DNA of 62,900 bases, filler included, from Reclinomonas americana ATCC 50394 (Eukaryota): NCBI GenBank assembly GCA_048213135.1. It is 18 parts of 18 records of this genome, joined end to end, with 100 filler letters (N's around TTAATTAATTAA, not from the genome) between each part and the next. Parts side by side here need not be neighbours in the genome. Positions count along the whole stretch, not along the records: positions 1 to 8,635 come from AFZH01017933.1; positions 8,736 to 12,310 come from AFZH01017935.1; 16 more parts are not named here. The stretch is one strand, 5' to 3'. Made by a program: the position numbers and the translations under genes. The notes beneath the pieces were generated by a model. The model saw only the letters and a list, made by a program, of their open reading frames with translations, was not told the origin of the DNA and made no database searches. Below, one piece after another: positions 4,224 through 56,639 of this stretch. The first letter of the stretch is position 1, and each line of letters starts with the position of its first letter.

Positions 4224-6405
4224 TCACCTGTGTATTCTCGGTGTCGGACCAGACCGCCTGCGCAAAGGCGGCGGCTGGTGATACTCTTCACCCTCTCGCT
4301 CATCGCCATCCATGTCGAGCGGCGACTTGCCGACCATGCGCTCCGCCACCTCCAGCGTCACCACCTCCTGGTCGACGACATCCTGCTCGGCCTCCTCGTC
4401 GTGAGCGCGGTGGTGGTGGTGGTGGCGGGCCGATGGCGGTCGGCGGGAGCTCGGTGACTCGGCGACGAGCACCGGGCGCGACAGCTGCTCAATGTGCGAC
4501 AGGAGCCAGCCGGTGCGCTTGTAGATCTTGCGGCGCTGCACGTCGTTCTTCGAGTCGGCCACGCGCTGTACCAGGCTCCAAATGTGACGCACACTCTCTG
4601 CGCACGAGGACGAGTGGTGAGATACCACAGCGCGCAGTCAGAATTCCAATACAAGGTGGACGCACCCTGGATCTGCTCCAGCTGCTGCGTCGAAAAGAGG
4701 ATCTTTTGGTCAAAGTCGTTGGTGATAAAGGCGTAGAAGAACGACAGCGCCTCTTCGAGATTGGTTTCGTCTGCAACGAGCAGTGAGAGGAAAGTCGCAC
4801 AGTGAAAGGAAAGGATGGCCAAGAGACGCAACCGACTCCGTGCTCGGGCGACGCCAGGTGCCAGATGAGTCGCTTCGGCGCCCACTCCATAATGTCGAGG
4901 ATTTCGGCGACACACGAGTTGAGGAGCCGGACAGAAGCGTCTGTGGGTGGGTCGAGGGCACTCGCAAACCAGGCCAGCGTGAGGAGCGAGTGCGAGAATT
5001 GATGGTGGGTTCGAGTGTCGTGGATTTGCGGGTGGACCACACTGATCGCAGAAAGGAGTTCAGCACATGGATGGGCGGCGAGAGGGGAGGGCGAAGGGAG
5101 GGGAGGAGACGGAACAGGCGGGCGGGGGTGTCGTGGCCGACGTGGACACAGTCGATGCGGTAGAGCTGGCGGATGAGTTCCATGGCTTGTTTTTCGTGCT
5201 CGAGGCCCTGTGGGATGACAGGGGGAGGAGGGTGAGGGCGAAGGGGAGGAGAAGGGGGGGAGGAGGAGGAGGAGGAGGAGGAGGAGGAGGAGGAGGAGGA
5301 GGAGGAGGAGGAGGAGGAGGAGGAGGAGGAGGAGGAGGAGGAGGAGGAGGAGGGGAGGAGGAGGAGGAGGGAGGAGGAGGAGGAGGGAGGAGGAAGGGAG
5401 GAGAGGAGAGAGGAGAGATGAGAGAGAGGCAGGAGGGAGAGGAGAGAGAGAGAGAAGAGGAGAGAGAGTGAGAGTGCAATCTGAGAAGGGCGAGTGGAGT
5501 CAGATAGGAGGAGTGGAAGAGGTGGCTCGCAACAAGAGCGATGACAAGGAATGAACGAAACGAGAGATGAGAGGAGCATAGAGGAAGAGACAAGCAAGAC
5601 AGAGAGAGATTCAAAAAAAGAAGAAGGCCACAGAGGAAGAGAGCACAGAGACACCATGCTCCCCCATCCCCCTCCCTCTCCCTTTTCACTCACAAGACAA
5701 GAAGGCGACATAAGAAGAGAGTGCAGAGAACGCATACTCCCCCATTCCCCATTTCCCACCCACCTGCGCAATCCTCCCCAACCTCGCACAACACACCGCG
5801 GCCGTCGTATGCGCCTTCATGCGGTTCTCCCGCGTACACGCCCCCGGCAACCTCCGCAACACCCTCTGCAGCGTATCCCCACACAACAGCAAGCAATCCT
5901 CATGTCTCTCCAGCTCCGCCAGTCGCACCGCAATCTGATGCTTCGCCACCGCGATCTTCAACAGAGTCTTGCTCAGAGTCACGGGCGGGTGTCGCCCACT
6001 CGACTCCAGCTGCATGTACGCGCAAAAGGCTTCCTCTGCGCGAGTCACACTGCATTCGGCCATGGCCGCAGTCGCCAGCACCAGAACCTGACTGGGATCC
6101 ACAACGACAATAGTGGTAGGAGATGGCGAGGAAATGGTAGGAGAATACGATTGAATGATCATTGGTTGCAGCTGAGGAGAATGCGATGGAACAACTGGTT
6201 GAGGAGATGGCGATGGAATGGCAGGAGAATGCGATGATATGGGGAGTGTAGGTGGGGTTGATTGGGGGAGGGCGAGGAGAGGTGGAGTGGGAGGTGCGGG
6301 TGGTTCGAGTCTGTTGGTAGAGGTGCGAGTTGTGGTGGTGGTGGTGTGGGAGGGAGTGGGTTCGATGACGGTGAGGTGTGGGTGGGAGGAGTGGTGGCAG
6401 CCCAT
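4224..6405 (-). CDS. Hypothetical protein: MGCHHSS acylation motif, P/S-rich linker, TPR-like helical region; multi-exon (intact 'gene C')
   Basis: ATG 6405; exon 1 to 5764 (..CCARLGRIAQ|GTGGGT); phase-0 intron 5763-5208 joins to GLEHEKQAMELIRQLY, giving a TPR-like helix pair. Further exons match ORFs 4489-5040, 4358-4915 and 4224-4628; internal splice sites uncertain. Confidence 0.55.
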
Positions 6406-6529
6406 TCTGTTGTTGACAGAGTGCGGTAAGTGAGTGAGGACATGATTGTGGTGTGACAACCGACGTTGTTGAACTGCTGGTTGTGTGTGGACGTCGCGTC
6501 GATGGTTTTGTATAGCTTGTGTGTTGTTT

Positions 6530-8569
6530 TTATTCGACGAGGAAGACTTCGTAGTCGGCAACTTGAAACAGGCGCGATCCCATTAGAGTCGTGTTGTCGC
6601 ATGCAGCGCCGTCGGTGCCCTGGTAAGAGTGCCCAAGGTTGCTGTTGCTGTTGCTGTTGCAGTTGCAGTTGTCAGCCAAGTAAAGGTCGAATCCTCCGAA
6701 TGCAGGCCCATATGCAGAGTTGTGATAAACGGCATGCTGTTTCTGATCGTCCTTCAGTGCAAAGCGTCGCGCACTTGCACCACTCCACGACGCTGAGAAC
6801 AAGAAGCTGGTGCCAGATGGATCGGCGGCATAAACGCCACCAGCGGTGCCAGTCTGCCACGACACAGGCGTGTATCCACCACACACTCGTCCCATCGACG
6901 ACTTGGCCAAAGTGAGCGTCGGCCTGCGCACAGTCTCACTCATCAGTCACCGAGCACAACAGGCTTCCCATTCTCCCGATCACTCACCCACGACTGTCAC
7001 ACCGCTGATGGAATGTGGCTGCCTTGAACCCATCTCGACTGCCCTTGAACAGCAACGTCAGCTTGGGCACACTCCCACCGCCACCTCTCGCTTGCTGCAC
7101 CCATTGCAGCACCACTCGCCCATCCACCGCACTCAGCAGATCACTTGTCTTCGCCCACACCGCTCGCTCCCGCTCCTCCCGCTCCCTGGCCTCGCGCTCG
7201 CGCTCCTCCCGCTCCCTGGCTTGCCGCTCACGCTCCTCCTGCTCTCTGGCCTGTCGCTCTCGTTCAGCCGCCTCACGCTCCTGAATCGCTCGTTCACGCA
7301 TCTCCAGCGGCTCGAGACGGGAGAGTAGCTGCACATGGACAGGAGAAAGAGTGAGGGAGAGGAGAGATGAACTCAACAATTCAAAGGCAATCACAAGACC
7401 AGACCTCAGCAACACCTCTCTCGAGAGATTCACGCATGCGACGCTCTGCAGCCAGCTGATCGCGAGCAGCTTGAATCTCAGCTTGCCTTGCCTGTCGTTC
7501 GTCAGCCAGTTGCTGGCGGCATTCGACGAGCATGCCCACGCAATCGACAAGTCGCTCAGTCGCGGCTTGTTGCTCGTGAGTCAATCGCACTTCAGCAGAA
7601 TGCCTCGCCTCCCTCTCGTGAGCCACCAACTGAGAAAGCTCGCGTACTTGCATGTGCAGCTGCACAAGCACGCATTCCCAGATATCAGAACAACGGAATG
7701 CATACTCATCACATCTCCTCTCGCAAACCTCTCGCAGCGGTCGCTCCACTCGCAACACATCACACACTCGTTCATGCTCCTCCCTCTCACCAAGCACACC
7801 ACGCCATCCACACCCCAGATCACCACCACGACACACTGTGTGCTGCAGTCGGCACTCCGTTTCTGCCACAACGAGAATAGCAACATCAGTGTCATGATAC
7901 ACCTCTCTCTCCATCAAGCGCCACTGACCAAGATGCCTCTGCATCTCCGCCAGTGCACACCGCTGCTGACATCCACGCGGACACACTCGCATGCATCCAC
8001 TCCAGCTGTGCTCCACCATCTCACTCAGCGCCATTCTTGCTCCACATCCGAGTGGACACTCGCGCAAGCATCCACTCCACTCGTGCTCCGCCGTGCGATC
8101 GAGTGTCATTTGCTGTCCACACCTCTCGCATGCATGCGGGCACTGCGTCAAGGCATGTGTGCGGTAATAGTCGCCCACCGTCTGTTCATCCATCAGTGAG
8201 GAAGACAGAAAAACAAACAACTCTCCATGACAACACAAACCATGGGTGCGTGGCACAGCGGGCATGCAATCTGTGACGCTCTCTCATTTCAACATCGCTG
8301 TTGATGCATTCAGCATCAACAGACTACTGCACAGAACCTTCATGTTGGTGTACATGAGTTGGAGTCGTCGTGGTGCCTCCTTCAACGTGGCGTGAGATGT
8401 GACTCCATCGCCACACAGATCCGATCCACTCTCCGTCACATGCTCACTGGCAATCATTGTCACAATGAGTGAGTCAAGCAAGCCAGCGCATTGTCTTCCT
8501 CACACTCACTCACCGACACAAGTGATGCAGCTCGCTTGCACACAGCACGAAATCCGGAGCACACAGATC
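6530..8569 (-). CDS. RING/TRAF-Zn-finger - coiled-coil - TLDc protein, copy A1 (exon 1 lost in the gap at 8636)
   Basis: TRAF-type fingers (CERCGQQM..EHEWSGC..CPLGCG..EH..C..CPRGC..RHL), E/R-rich helix, TLDc motifs LLFKGSRDGF..FHQRCD.RGPTL, GGYT..SW, SFLFS, GPAFGG..DL, SNLG.SY, FQVADYEVF*. Confidence 0.85.
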
Positions 8570-8597
8570 CTGACAACAAAACAATCATTAACGCAAG

Positions 8598-8630
<33 letters not shown>

Positions 8631-8635
8631 CGACG

Positions 8636-8735
8636 NNNNNNNNNNNNNNNNNNNNNNNNNNNNNNNNNNNNNNNNNNNNTTAATTAATTAANNNNNNNNN
8701 NNNNNNNNNNNNNNNNNNNNNNNNNNNNNNNNNNN
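8636..8735. other. Artificial gap spacer N44-TTAATTAATTAA-N44 (first of 17)
   Basis: Identical 100-nt spacers start at 8636, 12311, 16654, 18563, 20015, 23881, 25542, 28041, 32244, 35220, 36652, 45303, 47973, 50087, 56536, 57973 and 59827; the core gives stops in all six frames. Confidence 0.99.
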
Positions 8736-9024
8736 GGCAGGAGAATGCGAGGAAACAGCAGGAGATTGCGACTGAATGATCATCATTGGTTGCAGCTGAG
8801 GAGAATGCGATGGAACAGCTGGTTGAGGAGATGGCGATGGAATGGGAGGAGAATGCGATGAAATGGGGAGTGTAGGTGGGGTTGATTGGGGGGAGGGCGA
8901 GGAGAGGTGGAGTGGGAGGTGCGGGTGGTTCGAGTCTGTTGGTAGAGGTGCAAGTGGTTGTGGTGTGGGAGGGAGTGGGTTCGATGACGGTGAGGTGAGG
9001 GTGGGAGGAGTGGTGGCAGCCCAT
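8736..9024 (-). pseudogene. Duplicated 5' fragment of gene C (MGCHHSS...) between A1 and A2
   Basis: Near-identical to 6150-6405 but with a frameshift after LLALP; runs into the gap. Confidence 0.7.
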
Positions 9025-9138
9025 TCTGTTGTTGAGTGAGGGCGAGGATGTTGATGATTGTGGTGAATGACAACCGACGTTGTTGAACTGGTGGTTGTGT
9101 GTGGACGTCGCGTCGATGGTTTTGTAGCTTGTGTGTTT

Positions 9139-11582
9139 TTATTCGACGAGGAAGACTTCGTAGTCGGCCACTTGGAAGTTCTGCGATCCCATCAGGGTCT
9201 TGTCGTCGCATGCAGCGCCGTCGGTGCTCTGGTACGAGTTTCCAAGGTTGCTGTAGCTGTTGCTGTTGCTGTTGCAGCTGTCAACCAAGCGAAAGTCGTG
9301 TCCACCTCCGAACGCAGGTCCACCCTCAGAGTAATGATAAACGGCTTTCTGTTTCTGATCCGACTTCAGTGCAAAGCGTCGCGCACTCGCACCACTCCAC
9401 GAAGCAGAGAACAGGAAGCTGGTGACGGCTTGATCGGCGCCCCAAGCATTCGTCGACTGCCACGACACAGGCATGTATCCACCACACACTCGTCCCGTCG
9501 ACGACTTGGCCACAGTCAGCGTCGGTCTGCACACAGTCACACACTCATCAGTCACCGAACACTCAAGCTGTCGCTCTCCAATCACTCACCCACGATTGTC
9601 ACACCGCTGGTGGAATGTGGCTGCCTTGAACCCATCTCGACTGCCCTTGAACAGTAACGTCAACTTGGGCACACTCCCACCGCCACCTCTCGCTTGCTGC
9701 ACCCACTCCAACACCACTCGTCCATCCGCCGCACTCAGCAGATCGCTGTCAATCTTCCTCTCAGCTCGTTCTCGTTCCTCTCGCTCCCTGGCCTGCCGCT
9801 CCCGCTCTTCTCGTTCTCTCGCCTGCCGCTCTCGCTCCTCCTGCTCTCTGGCTCGGCGCTCGCGTTCAGCCGCCTCTCGCTCCTGAATCGCTCGTTCACG
9901 CATCTCCAGCGGCTCGAGACGGGAGAGTAGCTGCACATGGACAGGAGAAAGAGTGAGGGAGAGGAGAGATGAACTCAACAATTCAAAGGCAATCACAAGA
10001 CCAGACCTCAGCAACACCTCTCTCGAGAGATTCACGCATGCGACGCTCTGCAGCCAGCTGATCGCGAGCAGCTTGAATCTCAGCTTGCCTCGCCTGTCGT
10101 TCGTCAGCCAGTTGCTGCCGGCACTCGACAAGCATCCCCACACAATCGGCAAGTCGCTCATCGGCAGCTCGCATCTCAGCTTGCCTCGCCTCTCTTTCCT
10201 GCATCAGTTGCTCCCTGCTCTCAGCCACCAGCTGAGACAGTTCGCGCACTTGCACGTGCAACTGCGCACCCACACACGCCTCGAATCAGAACAAAGAGAG
10301 TGCATTCTCATCAACCAACTCCCACCCAACAAACCTCTCGCAGCGGTCGCTCCACTCGCAACACATCGCACACTCGCTCATGCTCCTCCTTCTCACCAAT
10401 AGTACCACGCCATCCACACCCCAGTTCGCCACCGCGACACACAGTGTGCTGCAGTCGGCACTCCGTTTCTGCCACCACACAACGTCAGTGTCATGATAAC
10501 ACTTCTCTCCTTCCAAGCACACTCACCAAGATGCCGCTGCATCTCCGCCAGTGAACATCGCTTTTGACATCCACGCGGACACACTCGCAGGCACCCGCTC
10601 CAGCTGTGCTCCACCATCTCACTCAGTGCCATCCTCGCTCCACATCCGAGAGGACACTCGCGCAAGCATCCACTCCACTCATGCTCCGCCGTGCGATCGA
10701 GTGTCATTTGCTGTCCACACCTCTCGCATGCATGCGGGCACTGCGTCAAGGCATGTGTGCGGTAATAGTCGCCCACCGTCTGTTCATCCACCAGTGAGGA
10801 GAGAAGCAAGACAAACAACTCTCCATGCCAAACACAAACCATGGGTGCGTGGCACAGCGGGCATGCAATCTGTGGTGCCTCTCTCATGTCAACATCACTG
10901 GCGATGCACTCTGCATCAAGAAGACAACCGCACACAACCTTCATATTGTTGTACATAAGCTGGAATCGACGCGGAACCTCATGCATAGTGGCCACCGACA
11001 TGACTCCATCGCCACACAGATCCGATCCACTCTCCGTCGCATGCTCACTGGCAATCATTGCCACAATGAGTGAGTCAAACAAGCCAGCGCACTGCCTTTC
11101 TTACCATTACTCACCGACACAAGTGATGCAGCTCGCTGGCACACAGCACGAAATCCGGAGCACACAGATCCTGACAACAAAACAATCATCAATGCACGCA
11201 CATGAGAGAGAGAGAGAGAGAGACAACTCACACTGCTGCATTCTCTCTCTCTCTCTCTCACTCTCTCTCTCTCCTTCACACTCACCATGCACACTGGACA
11301 CAGATACTCGTCCGCCAATGCACGCGACTCCGCAGCAACATGCTCCATCCACAAACGCGGTGGCTCCTTCACATCCTCCTTCTCCTTCTCTTCTCCTTCC
11401 ACCTCTGATGGAGGACGACGATGCACCGCGCGCACCACACAAAACACGTATTGTTCCTCATCAGCAAGTCGCATCACTTGCTGCTCGAGAACAACCTGAC
11501 TGGCATCCTCTGAAGCAGCAACAGGAGGGGGAAGAGGAGGAGCAGATCCACTGCCTTCGCCTCCACCGTCTTCGAAGCCCAT
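9139..11582 (-). CDS. RING/TRAF-Zn-finger - coiled-coil - TLDc protein, copy A2 (complete, multi-exon)
   Basis: ATG 11582 (MGFEDGGGEGSG); EYLCPVCM|DLCAPDFVLCASELHHLC variant RING, TRAF fingers, coiled coil, TLDc ending YEVFLVE* at 9139; same intron positions as A3. Confidence 0.85.
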
Positions 11583-51542: not shown

Positions 51543-51727
51543 ACCGAATGTAGTGTGAGCCGCGCAGAGGAAGCCCTTTGCGCGTACATGCAACTGGAGT
51601 CGAGTGGGCGGCACCCGACTGTGACTCTGAGCAAGACTCTGTTGAAGATCGCGGTGGCGAAGCATCAGATTGCGGTGCGACTGGCGGAGCTGGAGAGACA
51701 CGAGGATTGCTTGCTGTTATGTGGTTG
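51543..51727 (+). pseudogene. Internal fragment of gene C (ECSVSRAEEALCAY..CLLLCG) fused to the sequence upstream of A
   Basis: Near-identical to the reverse complement of 5880-6060; begins ~120 bp after the RAD18 stop. Confidence 0.75.
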
Positions 51728-52345: not shown

Positions 52346-52652
52346 ATGGGTTTCGAAGACGGTGGAGGTGAAGGCAGTGGATCAGCTCCTCCTCTTCCCC
52401 CTCTTCCTCCTCCTCCTTCAGAGGATGACAGTCAGGTTGTTCTCGAGCAGCAAGTGATGCAACTCACTGCTGATGAGGAACAATACGTGTTTTGTGTGGT
52501 GCGCGCGGTGCATCGTCGTCCTCCGTCGGAGGTGGAAGGAGAAGAGAAAGATGTGAAGGAACCACCGCGTTTGTGGATGGAGCATGTTGCTGCGGAGTCG
52601 CGTGCATTGGCGGACGAGTATCTGTGTCCAGTGTGCATGGTGAGTGCGAGGA

Positions 52653-52695
<43 letters not shown>

Positions 52696-54893
52696 ATGCA
52701 GCATTGTGAGTCGTCTCTCTCTCTCTCTCTCTCATGTGCGTGCATTGATGATTGCTTTGTTGTCAGGATCTGTGTGCTCCGGATTTCGTGTTGTGTGCCA
52801 GCGAGCTGCATCACTTGTGTCGGTGAGTGAGGAAGAAAGTGAAGGCAGTGCGCTGGCGTGCTCGACTTGCTCATTGTGGCAATGATTGCCAGTGAGCATG
52901 TGACGGAGGCTGGATCGGATTTGTGTGGCGATGGGATCACATCTCACGCCACGTTGAAGGAGGCACCACGACGACTCCAGCTCATGTATGGCAACATGAA
53001 GGTTGCGCGTGGTTATCTATTGATGCAGAGTGCATCGCCAGTGATGCTCACATGAGAGAGCACCACAGATTACATGCCCGCTGTGCCACGCACCCATGGT
53101 TTGTTTGTCATGGAGAGTTGTTTGTCTTGGTTTCTCTCTCCTGACTGTGGATGAGCAGACTGTGGGCGACTATTACCGCACACATGGCCCATCGCAGTGC
53201 CCGTATGCGTGCGAGAGGTGTGGACAGCAGATGACACTCGATCGCACGGTGGAGCATGAGTGGAGTGGATGCTTGCGCGAGTGTCCACTCGGATGTGGAG
53301 CAAGAATGGCGCTGAGTGAGATGGTGGAGCACAGCTGGAGTGGGTGCATGCGAGTGTGTCCGCGTGGATGTCAGCAGCGGTGTTCATTGGCGGAGATGCA
53401 GAGGCATCTTGGTGAGTGTCCTTCGAGAGGAGAGAGCGGTGTATCGTGACACTGATTTGGTGTCTCTCGTGGTAGAAACGGAGTGCCGACTGCAGCACAC
53501 TGTGTGTCGTGGTGGCGAACTGGGGTTTGGATGGCGTGGTACTATTGGTGAGAAGGAGGAGCACGAACGAGTGTGTGATGTGTTGCGAGTAGAGCGACCA
53601 CTGCGAGAGGTTTGTGAGTGAGAGGAAATGTGATGAGAATGGATTCACTTTGTTCTGATTCGAGGCGTGTGTGCTTGTGCAGCTGCACGATCGAGTGCGA
53701 GAGCTTCCCCAGCTGCAAGTGCAAGTGCGTGAGCTATCTCAGCTCGTGGCTCACGAGAGGGAAGCTAGACAAGCTGCTGAAGTGCGATTGACTCGCGAGC
53801 AACAAGCGGCGACTGAGCGACTTGTCGATTGCGTGGGGATGCTCGTCGAGTGCCGCCAGCAACTGGCTGATGAACGACAAGCGAGACAAGCCACAGACGA
53901 GCAACTTGCTTCTGAGCGTCGCATGCGTGAATCTCTCGAGAGAGGTGTCACTGAGGTCTGCTACGTGATTGCCTTTGAATTGTTGAGTGCATCTCTCCTC
54001 TCCCTCACTCTTTCTCCTGTCCATCTGCAGCTGCTCGCCCGTCTCGAGCCGTTGGAGGTGCGCGAACGAGCGATCCAGGAACGGGAGGCGGCTGAACGAG
54101 AGCGACAGGCCAGAGAGCAGGAAGAACGCGAGCGGCAGGCCAGAGAGCAGGAGGAGCGCGAGCGGCAGGCCAGGGAGCGAGAGGAACGCGAGCGGCAGGC
54201 CAGAGAGCGAGAAGAGCGGGAGCGTGAGGCCAGAGAGCGGGAGGAGCGGGAACGAGTGGAGATACAAAAGAGCGATCTTCTGAGTGCGGCAGATGCGCGA
54301 GTGGTGCTGCAATGGGTGCAGCAGGCGCGAGGCGGCGGTGGGAGTGTGCCCAAGCTGACGTTGCTGTTCAAGGGCAGTCGAGATGGATTCAGGGTAACCA
54401 CATTCCATCAGTGGTGTGACAATCGTGGGTGAGTGATTGCGGAAATGAGAAGGAGAGCTCGGTGTGCTTGATAATTGATGGATGAGTGGCTGTACGCAGA
54501 CCGACGCTGACTGTAGCCGAATCGTCGACGGGACGAGTGTGTGGTGGATACACGCCTGTCTCGTGGACGTCTGCGGGCGGCTATGCCGCCGATCCGTCTG
54601 GCACCAGCTTCTTGTTCTCGGCATCGTGGAGTGGTGCAAGTGCGCGACGCTTTGCACTGAAGGAGGATAAGAAACAGCATGCCGTTCAGCACTACTCTGC
54701 GCATGGGCCTACATTCGGAGGATGCGACCTTCACTTGGCTGACAACTGCAACAGCAACAGCGCCAGCTACAGCAACCTTGGCAACCTTGGGAACTCATAC
54801 CAGAGCACCGACGGCGCTGCATGCGACAACACGACTCTGATGGGATCGCGCGCCTTCCAAGTGGCCGACTACGAAGTCTTCCTCGTCGAATAA
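52346..54893 (+). CDS. RING/TRAF-Zn-finger - coiled-coil - TLDc protein, copy A3 (complete)
   Basis: ATG 52346; phase-consistent introns include 52640-52766, 53002-53068 and 54429-54499. Spliced EYLCPVCMDLCAPDFVLCASELHHLCREH..LCGD..APRRLQLMYGNMKITCPLC, TRAF fingers, coiled coil, E/R helix, TLDc; TAA ends at 54893. Confidence 0.87.
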
Positions 54894-55005
54894 AAACAAC
54901 ACACAAGCTACAAAACCATCGAAGCGACGTCCTCACACAACCACCAGTTCAACAACGTCGGTTGTTCTCATGTCCTCAACATCCTCGTCCTCACTCAACC
55001 ACAGA

Positions 55006-55551
55006 ATGGGCTGCCACCACTCCTCCCACCCTCACCTCACCGTCATCGAACCCACTCTCTCCCACACCACCACAACTCGCACAACCAACAGACTCGAACC
55101 ACCCGCACATCCCACTCCACCTCTCCTCGCCCTCCCCCAATCAACCCTACCTACACTCCCCATATCATCGCATTCTCCTGCCATTCCATCGCCATCTCCT
55201 CAACCAGCTGTTCCATCGCATTCTCCTCAGCTGCAGCCAACAATGATCATTCAGTCGCATTCTCCTGCTGTTTCCTCGCCATCTCCAGCTGTTTCCTCGC
55301 CATCTCCTACCACTATTGCTGTTGTGGATCCCAGTCAGGTTCTGGTGCTGGCGACTGCGGCCATGGCCGAATGCAGTGTGACTCGCGCAGAGGAAGCCTT
55401 TTGCGCGTACATGCAACTGGAGTCGAGTGGGCGACACCCGCCAGTGACTCTGAGCAAGACACTGTTGAAGATCGCTGCGCGGTGGCGAAGCATCAGATTG
55501 CGGTGCGACTGGCGGAGCTGGAGAGACACGAGGATTGCTTGCTGTTGTGTG
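55006..55551 (+). pseudogene. Truncated, frameshifted copy of gene C exon 1
   Basis: MGCHHSS start at 55006; 5-nt insertion at ~55474 (AAGATCGCTGCGCGGTGGCG vs AAGATCGCGGTGGCG); homology to C stops at ..CTGTTGTGTGG. Confidence 0.75.
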
Positions 55552-56170
55552 GTTGCCGGGAAAGGGGGACGGGGAGGATGACATCCACGCGCTTTGCAAT
55601 AGCGACACTGTGTCGACTGTCTCTCAACAACAACACCAAGAGGAGGCAAGGTGCATCGACGCAAAAGGCGATGCACGAGACCACTGCCGCGCAGCAACAT
55701 TTCGAACAAGAGAGATGAAGGAAGGTCCTCGACGTCTGCTCTTGTCGCGTGTGTGTGGCAAAGCGACAAGGCTATTGTGCATGAAGAGGGCGACCTTCTC
55801 CATGGTGGTGGTGGTGGGATGCCCTGAGTGCGTTGCTGCTGCCTTCTGCATATCGATATTTGCAATATCTGTCTGCAAATGCAGTTCAGAAGTCCTCTGC
55901 CATCAACTGTGCAAGCCCTTCCCCGGAGATTGCAGTGCTCCACTTCCTCCGAGCCTTCTCTCCACCCGTCAGTTGCAAGTGAAAGGGCTGTCCGGTTTCA
56001 TGCTTGTTTCTCTCCTCCTGCGCATCAAGCATACGTGCCAACAAACAGTCTGTGACACTCTCCTTACGCAGCACCCATCGATGCGTCACTGTTTGCTTCA
56101 CCCCTCTCAAGAGGAACGCGTCCTGCGCGCATGCATGTCCTCCACCCTCATTGTTCCGGTGTCGTTGAGA

Positions 56171-56473
56171 ATGGGATTCGAAGACGGTGGAGGCGAGGGC
56201 AGTGGATCAGCTCCTCCTCATCCTCTTCCTCTTCCTCCTCTTGCTTCAGAGGATGACAGTCAGGTTGTTCTCGAGCAGCAAGTGATGCGACTCAGCGATG
56301 AGGAACAATACGTGTTTTGTGTGGTGCGCGCGGTGCATCGTCGTCCTCCGTCGGAGATGGAAGGAGAAGAGAAGGAGAAGAAGGATGTGAAGGAGCCACC
56401 GCGTTTGTGGATGGAGCACGTTGCTGCAGAGTCGCGTGCGTTGGCGGACGAGTATCTGTGTCCAGTGTGCATG
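56171..56473 (+). CDS. RING/TRAF/TLDc protein, copy A4, exon 1 only (rest lost in the gap)
   Basis: MGFEDGGGEGSG...EYLCPVCM|GTGAGT, homologous to A2/A3 exon 1. Confidence 0.75.
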
Positions 56474-56639
56474 GTGAGTGTGTGAAGGAGAGAGAGAGAG
56501 AGAGAGAGAATGCAGCATTGTGAGTCGTCTCTCTCNNNNNNNNNNNNNNNNNNNNNNNNNNNNNNNNNNNNNNNNNNNNTTAATTAATTAANNNNNNNNN
56601 NNNNNNNNNNNNNNNNNNNNNNNNNNNNNNNNNNNTTCT

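Follow-up and report, generated by a model that had tools for sequence, protein, structure and literature searches.

Amino-acid divergence concentrated in the TLDc domain of a predicted tandem zinc-finger/TLDc gene family in Reclinomonas americana

We describe a predicted gene family in 62,900 nucleotides of DNA from Reclinomonas americana ATCC 50394 (assembly GCA_048213135.1; the whole stretch is hereafter the window). Three copies, A1, A2 and A3, and the first exon of a further one, A4, appear to encode proteins that run from an acidic N-terminus through a RING-like Cys/His motif, four CCHC zinc fingers and a coiled coil with a Glu/Arg-rich helix to a C-terminal TLDc domain. Our reading, to which we give a probability of about one half, is that this is a tandem family whose copies may have diverged in the binding face of the TLDc domain, partly by positive selection. 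The evidence behind it is a difference in constraint along the protein: the zinc fingers and the core of the TLDc domain are under strong purifying selection, and in the last TLDc exon roughly one position in two evolves at the rate of synonymous sites, in each of the three lineages.

The window strings together 18 contigs, each 1.3-8.6 kb long, by means of 17 linkers of the form N44-TTAATTAATTAA-N44, and adjacency across any linker is no evidence of genomic neighbourhood. This concerns in particular the span 6530-9530, which an earlier, sequence-only reading treated as one region and which runs from the last part of contig 1 (1-8635) across a linker into the first part of contig 2 (8736-12310). 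A1 and A2 stand side by side because these contigs were joined, and their adjacency in the genome is not thereby evidenced.

Divergence and sequence exchange among the copies

The sequence-only reading had set near-identical zinc-finger exons and introns against a hypervariable TLDc exon, and its exon counts hold up well. Between A1 and A2, 3 of 84 residues differ in the zinc-finger exon (exon 5), as against 31 of 127 aligned residues, plus two in-frame indels of three and one residues, in the last TLDc exon (exon 9). The three loop strings that it quoted were located in A1, A2 and A3, and frames and GT-AG splice sites are preserved in all three copies. What it said of the introns is true of intron 7 only, which is identical in A1 and A2 (0 of 76 bases differ); introns 2-8 together differ at 80 of 452 aligned bases and contain 30 gap columns. 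Taken singly, the introns other than intron 7 are 13-43% different between A1 and A2 (8-27% in the other two pairs), and those adjoining the zinc-finger exon differ by 14-25%.

The contrast between the two exons lies in amino-acid change. Across the three pairs of copies, synonymous divergence (dS) is 0.16-0.31 in exon 5 and 0.20-0.31 in exon 9, with values of 0.21 and 0.31, respectively, for A1 against A2, while nonsynonymous divergence (dN) rises from 0.015-0.039 in exon 5 to 0.083-0.163 in exon 9. The sequence-only reading had named dN/dS as the test of its contrast, and the ratio is indeed raised in the TLDc exon (0.41-0.55) over the zinc-finger exon (0.07-0.21, with 0.07 for A1 against A2) at similar dS.

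These figures also bear on a different explanation, namely that gene conversion homogenises only the 5' part of the genes and that the TLDc exon displays the true, older divergence. Gene conversion between the copies does take place. An identical conversion tract of 213 bp (A1 7276-7488, A2 9878-10090) spans intron 7 and the ends of exons 7 and 8. The mosaic signal is also very pronounced: 397 informative sites fall into 160 runs of the three possible patterns, with longest runs of 27, 28 and 14 sites, and none of 10,000 shuffles gave as few runs, so that A1, A2 and A3 are recombination mosaics. However, the identical tract excludes the zinc-finger exon, the introns on either side of that exon have diverged as described above, and dS is equal in exons 5 and 9. 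Since synonymous divergence is similar in both exons, conversion limited to the 5' part was ruled out as the cause of the contrast, and we regard this explanation as very improbable.

The coiled-coil region of the genes is variable in both length and sequence. Exon 7 contains long runs of sites at which A1 and A3 agree and A2 differs, and the 5' half of the exon in A2 (about 10160-10261) has been replaced by sequence that looks unrelated to the other copies and resembles the exon's own downstream part, as if by internal duplication or conversion. In A3, the same exon carries a 30-nt insertion and a 12-nt deletion, and exon 8 has 57 extra bases of the Glu/Arg-rich repeat by comparison with A1.

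Selection within the last TLDc exon

Exon 9 was analysed with a purpose-written codon-likelihood program on a three-taxon tree (127 codons, three sequences). The overall dN/dS ratio, omega, is 0.57 under model M0. Model M2a assigns 19% of codons to a class with omega 3.4 and gains over the nearly neutral model M1a a likelihood ratio test (LRT) statistic of 5.65, for which the chi-square p value is 0.059 with three sequences and recombination present. Among replicates simulated under the fitted M1a, 3 of 109 reach this value; power is moderate, with 30 of 48 replicates under the fitted M2a exceeding 5.99. Alignment error around indels was considered as a source of the signal of omega above 1 and rejected, the signal persisting after trimming: the LRT is 7.20 when residues 22-33 are dropped (118 codons) and 6.96 when all three indel neighbourhoods are dropped (105 codons), with chi-square p values of 0.027-0.031. 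Candidate sites with a posterior above 0.8 are 26, 28-31, 58, 63, 66, 71, 78, 81, 91 and 118 in the numbering of A1 exon 9, which is uncertain in loop 1 because two alignments put the three-residue gap in different places. By secondary structure, 6 of these 13 sites lie in loops, and 7 of the 127 codons encode three different residues in the three copies.

Given that picking sites for their variation is circular, we also set site classes independently of the copies, and the results weigh against adaptive divergence. The first partition used the entropy per column in 61 other TLDc proteins, drawn from an exhaustive search (2,882 matches). The 36 variable positions of exon 9 fall on columns that vary across the family (2.80 versus 1.86 bits, p = 5e-6). 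Omega in the family-variable half is 1.11 by likelihood (interval about 0.69-1.83), which does not differ significantly from 1 (2dlnL = 0.16), and 0.87-0.92 by counting; it is 0.14 in the family-conserved half, and two omegas are preferred to one across the exon (LRT 38.6, p = 5e-10). The second partition followed the DSSP secondary structure of an AlphaFold2 model of exon 9 (predicted local distance difference test score, pLDDT, 93.7). Here 20 of 72 codons vary in loops and 16 of 55 in strands or helix (odds ratio 0.94), and the omega of loops (0.43-0.55) is similar to that of strands and helix (0.37-0.60). No independently defined site class has an omega significantly above 1. The claim that changes cluster in loops is thus borne out for the two stretches singled out by the sequence-only reading, where 22 of 35 columns vary against 21 of 99 outside (a post hoc choice of stretches), and fails for loops as defined by DSSP; the order in which variable and invariant columns follow each other yields p = 0.12 in a runs test.

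The site tests themselves call for caution on the same side. Only three exon 9 sequences are available, and the test is borderline and assumes no recombination; with so few sequences, which are moreover recombination mosaics, such tests are inflated. Exon 9 taken alone is weakly mosaic, with 35 runs among 68 sites (p = 0.025). Furthermore, between A1 and A2, 14 of the 46 changed codons differ at two or three bases, and multi-base codon differences are known to inflate site-model tests.

It follows from these partitions that the fast sites of exon 9 evolve at about the neutral rate and are not specific to loops. Decay of one copy was rejected as their origin, since branch omegas are alike (0.46, 0.69 and 0.50; p = 0.75 for heterogeneity). 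Relaxed constraint could produce such a pattern without any adaptive diversification: positions that tolerate change in all TLDc proteins would simply drift, the contrast with the zinc fingers would reflect a different structural constraint, and the family may act by dosage in stress or V-ATPase regulation, as proposed for the TLD expansions of ciliates. The near-neutral omega of the family-variable half, the coincidence of variable sites with family-variable columns and the equal omegas of loops and strands are all as this explanation would have them. So is a published ciliate case: for the tandemly expanded TLD genes of Tetrahymena utriculariae, the accessible part of the report gives 84 negatively and 2 positively selected codons out of 236 by fixed effects likelihood, that is, mainly purifying selection (PMC11834939), which also tells against adaptive divergence in the Reclinomonas copies. 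On the other hand, M2a outperforms the nearly neutral M1a to a degree that few null simulations match, the trimmed tests fall below 0.05, and several codons hold three different residues. In our judgement, which is not a test, a neutral rate at half of the positions of a folded domain would also be unusually high for intact, constrained genes. We consider relaxed constraint alone a serious possibility, at somewhat less than even odds.

Where the sequence-only reading had proposed diversifying selection, the raised dN/dS and the class of codons with omega of about 3.4 speak for it, and the lack of an independent class above 1 and the likeness of loops and strands do not. Positive selection on a few sites is plausible, at about even odds, and not established.

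Protein architecture and comparison with known systems

Pfam domains were tested exon by exon. Exon 9 matches the TLD family (PF07534) at 46.8, 49.2 and 45.1 bits in A1, A2 and A3, respectively, well over the cut-off of 24.5, along profile positions 54-169 of 170. The last 57 residues of A1 exon 8 align with profile positions 25-51 below threshold (E = 0.013), and the exon 8 tails of all copies with positions 24-51 (3-51 in A3) at 15.9-17.8 bits, each below the cut-off alone. As the profile stops at 51 in exon 8 and is taken up at 54 in exon 9, the predicted TLDc domain therefore continues across intron 8. The AlphaFold2 model of exon 9, which is without the N-terminal third of the domain, is predicted to have the TLDc fold, a beta-sandwich of two antiparallel sheets (for the fold, see the accessible part of PMC8329711). 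The best 12 PDB matches listed by Foldseek are all TLDc structures (NCOA7, mEAK7, OXR2, Skywalker and Oxr1), with probability 1.00, query-normalised TM-scores of 0.55-0.68, E values of 3.6e-3 to 9.3e-2 and identities of 12-20%. A search of PDB sequences with an exon 9 profile found no solved TLDc chain, only a spurious antibody light chain (E = 0.21).

The N-terminal half is less securely classified. Exons 5 and 6 encode four fingers per protein with the pattern C-x2-4-C-x10-13-H-x3-6-C, which we take to resemble the fingers of TRAF proteins. No Pfam family reaches its threshold in these exons (the best, zf_UBZ, scores 20.3-23.1 bits against a cut-off of 25.6); zf-TRAF gives no match at E up to 10, and a B-box match is likewise absent. 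The RING cross-brace consensus is C-x2-C-x9-39-C-x1-3-H-x2-3-C/H-x2-C-x4-48-C-x2-C. All three proteins depart from this canonical pattern; a relaxed one (C3-to-H spacing of 4, His at ligand 6) fits A2 95-160 and A3 94-159 as a pattern match only. A structure prediction for exon 5 was unusable (pLDDT 41.5). The gene model and its splicing are themselves predictions from the comparison of copies, and expression of the genes would be putative. All these points, the fit of the finger pattern and the relaxed RING pattern apart, lessen the case for a ligase-like scaffold.

In its layout, with a zinc-binding N-terminus, an oligomerising coiled coil and a C-terminal globular domain, the predicted protein would correspond to TRAF- and TRIM-type ubiquitin ligases. 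TRAF proteins combine a RING, TRAF-type zinc fingers, a coiled coil and a MATH domain. The array proteins share this order, from an N-terminal Cys/His motif through a row of CCHC fingers and a coiled coil to a globular domain in the partner-binding position, but that domain is TLDc and not MATH (TRAF-C), zf-TRAF is not matched, and the spacing of the RING-like motif is non-canonical. Proteins of the TRIM5alpha type carry a RING, a B-box, a coiled coil and a SPRY domain, and come from clustered genes with variable SPRY loops. Similarly, the array is a cluster of paralogues that keep their N-terminal scaffold and differ in amino acids chiefly in the C-terminal domain, and one database relative (P0072) unites RING, B-box and TLDc; the array differs in that exons 5-6 are without a B-box, there is no SPRY domain, positive selection is borderline and no virus link is known.

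According to our reading of adaptive divergence, TLDc would be the module for binding partners or substrates, the paralogues would diverge in its binding face, with positive selection on about 7-19% of codons at an omega of about 3-7, and the copies would recognise different partners with a catalytic and oligomerising scaffold in common. The layout suggests that the array genes are a TRAF- or TRIM-like version of such a system, with a putative partner and, given the non-canonical RING, a putative ubiquitin-ligase activity.

Relatives provide some context for this proposal. We scanned 123 of the 150 best TLDc relatives for domains, leaving aside the 27 shortest (under about 230 residues), at thresholds of 1e-3, 1e-3 and 1e-6. 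BTB_2, BTB, BACK, RING or B-box domains occur in 20 of the 123; besides P0072, two proteins combine BTB, BACK and TLDc. BTB-TLDc and BTB-BACK-TLDc proteins (P0007, P0095, P0139 and others) are among the closest relatives of the array, at 34-43% identity over exon 9. BTB proteins serve as Cullin-3 adaptors, and in these relatives TLDc occupies the position that Kelch or MATH takes in such adaptors; their N-terminal module differs, the array genes being without BTB. This distribution points to TLDc as what may often be the partner-binding module of ubiquitin-ligase-type proteins among TLDc relatives. A further point on the other side is that 103 of the 123 relatives are without a ligase-type domain, with TLDc alone or joined to a kinase (2), PKD, fn3 or Ras domain (1 each). 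Separately, P0002, P0033, P0038, P0114 and P0151 have four to seven TLDc domains per predicted protein (seven in the 1,833 residues of P0002); they may either be genuine multi-domain proteins or result from gene prediction that fused tandem genes. In P0114 and P0120, TLDc is combined with a protein kinase.

In the collections searched, the closest protein has 52% identity, the best among the 2,882 matches; longer proteins gave one match, at 39%, and 71 near-length matches reach at most 51%. The zinc-finger exon found no relative among the longer proteins, and six relatives looked up in clusters are singletons. Among 161 and 416 pattern matches in genomic and metagenomic contigs, respectively, none was confirmed as a relative of the array genes.

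The array domain also has the predicted fold of OXR1, NCOA7, TBC1D24 and mEAK7, which bind V-ATPase, and its Pfam TLD scores are above threshold. However, identity to such proteins is low and the N-terminal partners differ, and V-ATPase binding by the array proteins would be putative. In V-ATPase-binding proteins, the domain is highly conserved, as stated in the accessible part of PMC13570293. Another likeness is to the ciliate TLD families (Tetrahymena utriculariae orthogroup OG0000067; Paramecium bursaria), which are also lineage-specific tandem TLDc expansions in protists. In the available portion of the T. utriculariae study, 18 of 22 TLD-bearing copies are tandem duplicates, the authors interpret the expansion as an adaptation to oxidative stress, and no RING, zinc-finger or coiled-coil fusion is mentioned (PMC11834939). 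Tandem TLD expansions in protists are thus already in print. In Symbiodinium, a TLDC2 homologue is listed among positively selected genes in the part of PMC12284398 at hand. A family with RING, zinc fingers, coiled coil and TLDc is not described in the open-access literature searched, judged by titles and the openings of abstracts.

The sequence-only reading went further and likened the copies to arrays of immune receptors, an analogy that would be speculative; nothing links the family to immunity. A related idea, drawn by analogy, is that the genes could be a protist counterpart of TRIM5-like restriction factors, that is, tandem RING-like/zinc-finger/coiled-coil ligases with TLDc as a fast-diversifying recognition module for variable targets, for example viral, parasite or non-self proteins. 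We consider it unlikely. If it were true, TLDc would have a receptor-like role besides that of a conserved V-ATPase regulator, and it would become clear why the domain is often fused to BTB, BACK, RING and B-box domains in protists and invertebrates.

Tandem array, neighbouring features and significance

TLDc-bearing copies were located by tblastn with pieces of A1 as queries, which yielded A1 and A2 on the minus strand, A3 on the plus strand and a fourth first exon near 56100-56500 (Table 1). Exon boundaries were taken from a three-copy DNA alignment and are common to all copies. The predicted gene model comprises nine exons separated by eight introns, all of them GT-AG and 58-127 nt long (58-115 nt in A2), with open frames in all three copies. 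Differences in exon length among the copies (3, 18, 57 and 6 nt) are all multiples of three and those in intron length mostly are not, which provides comparative support for the model. A predicted 30-nt exon 4, encoding a Cys-Pro-Leu-Cys pair and bordered by introns of about 60-69 nt, is kept in all three copies.

Table 1. Array features and linkers, with positions counted along the whole window
Feature	Position	Strand	Remark
A1, partial, exons 2-9	6530-8569	-	contig 1, ends 8635
A1 exon 9: C-terminal two thirds of TLDc domain and stop; variable exon	6530-6923	-	PF07534 E = 4e-12
A1 exon 8: Glu/Arg-rich helical repeat, then N-terminal third of TLDc	6988-7328	-	
A1 intron 7, identical to A2 intron 7 (9931-10006)	7329-7404	-	
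A1 exon 7: coiled-coil region	7405-7659	-	
A1 exon 6: fourth CCHC zinc finger	7729-7862	-	
A1 exon 5: zinc-finger exon, three CCHC fingers	7929-8181	-	
A1 exons 2-4 with introns 2 and 3: remainder of RING-like Cys/His motif	8514-8569, 8338-8446, 8241-8270	-	
A2, complete, nine exons, 620 residues	9139-11582	-	TLD E = 7.5e-13
A2 exons 1-5	11286-11582, 11115-11170, 10939-11047, 10840-10869, 10527-10779	-	
A2 exons 6-9	10335-10468, 10007-10261, 9590-9930, 9139-9526	-	
A3, complete, nine exons, 646 residues	52346-54893	+	TLD E = 1.4e-11
A3 exons 1-5	52346-52639, 52767-52822, 52893-53001, 53069-53098, 53159-53411	+	
A3 exons 6-9	53476-53609, 53683-53955, 54031-54428, 54500-54893	+	
A4, intact first exon of a further copy, 101 residues, open frame	56171-56473	+	tblastn; repeat identity
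ORF B just downstream of A1	5686-6406	-	within repeat unit; open over about 240 codons
ORF B copy after A2	8736-9030	-	frameshifted or cut at repeat boundary
ORF B copy after A3	55000-55720	+	frameshifted or cut at repeat boundary
Artificial linker N44-TTAATTAATTAA-N44, contig 1 / contig 2	8636-8735	.	inside the span of the sequence-only reading
Second linker	12311-12410		15 more elsewhere in the window

The genes form a real tandem array. On contig 15, the segment 51544-52721 is repeated at 55367-56535 with 87% identity and a period of about 3.8 kb, and the copies are 84-87% identical over 2.5-3.6 kb, flanks included. It is the presence of A3 and the first exon of A4 on this one contig, with starts 3.8 kb apart, that establishes the array. 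An alternative would be that the copies are not paralogues and arose as artefacts in assembly or represent diverged alleles of a single gene, which the high fragmentation of the assembly and the placement of A1 and A2 on separate contigs, joined by a linker only, might suggest. The linkage of A3 and A4 contradicts it, as do the pairwise dS of 0.27-0.36 over the whole coding sequence and the many indels, which are far above ordinary allelic divergence, and we hold this alternative to be extremely improbable.

The number of copies is at least three and possibly four. A1 is without exon 1 because contig 1 stops within the (GA)n tract of intron 1, and A4 may be this missing exon. The end of contig 15 and contig 1 (reverse complement, at its start) both fall within one (GA)n/(TC)n stretch of that intron (56171-56535 and 8570-8635), where the assembly probably broke. 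The tail of contig 15 and the reverse-complemented end of contig 1 overlap by 13 nt, in a motif that is not unique and also occurs in A3.

Each repeat unit also contains a second open reading frame (ORF), ORF B, about 125 nt downstream of the TLDc gene, which is rich in Pro, Ser and Thr and then has a conserved C-terminal part. The array is bounded upstream by a 181-bp fragment of ORF B (51544-51724), which shares 94% identity with 5879-6059. ORF B matched no Pfam family.

Elsewhere in the window, Pfam gave a single match among 150 long ORFs outside the array, a predicted exon of Serinc (serine incorporator; 23015-23635, plus strand, E = 9e-17), which confirms the eukaryotic origin of the sequence. 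Internal tandem repeats with units of about 90-330 bp and 72-97% identity occur at 13519-14731, 22279-23017, 47534-47972 and 26151-26423 (contigs 3, 6, 13 and 8, respectively) and appear unrelated to the TLDc array.

TLDc has been studied almost only as a conserved regulator of V-ATPase and of oxidative-stress resistance. Here, it stands in the substrate-recognition position of what looks like a ligase-type scaffold, a placement that recurs in the 20 relatives with ligase-type domains, and it is the fastest-changing part of a tandem family. If only relaxed constraint is at work, this is an ordinary duplicated gene family. If, on the other hand, divergence has been adaptive, TLDc would be counted with SPRY, MATH, Kelch and LRR among the folds co-opted for variable recognition, and the many TLDc expansions of protists that lack an explanation would become testable on that basis.

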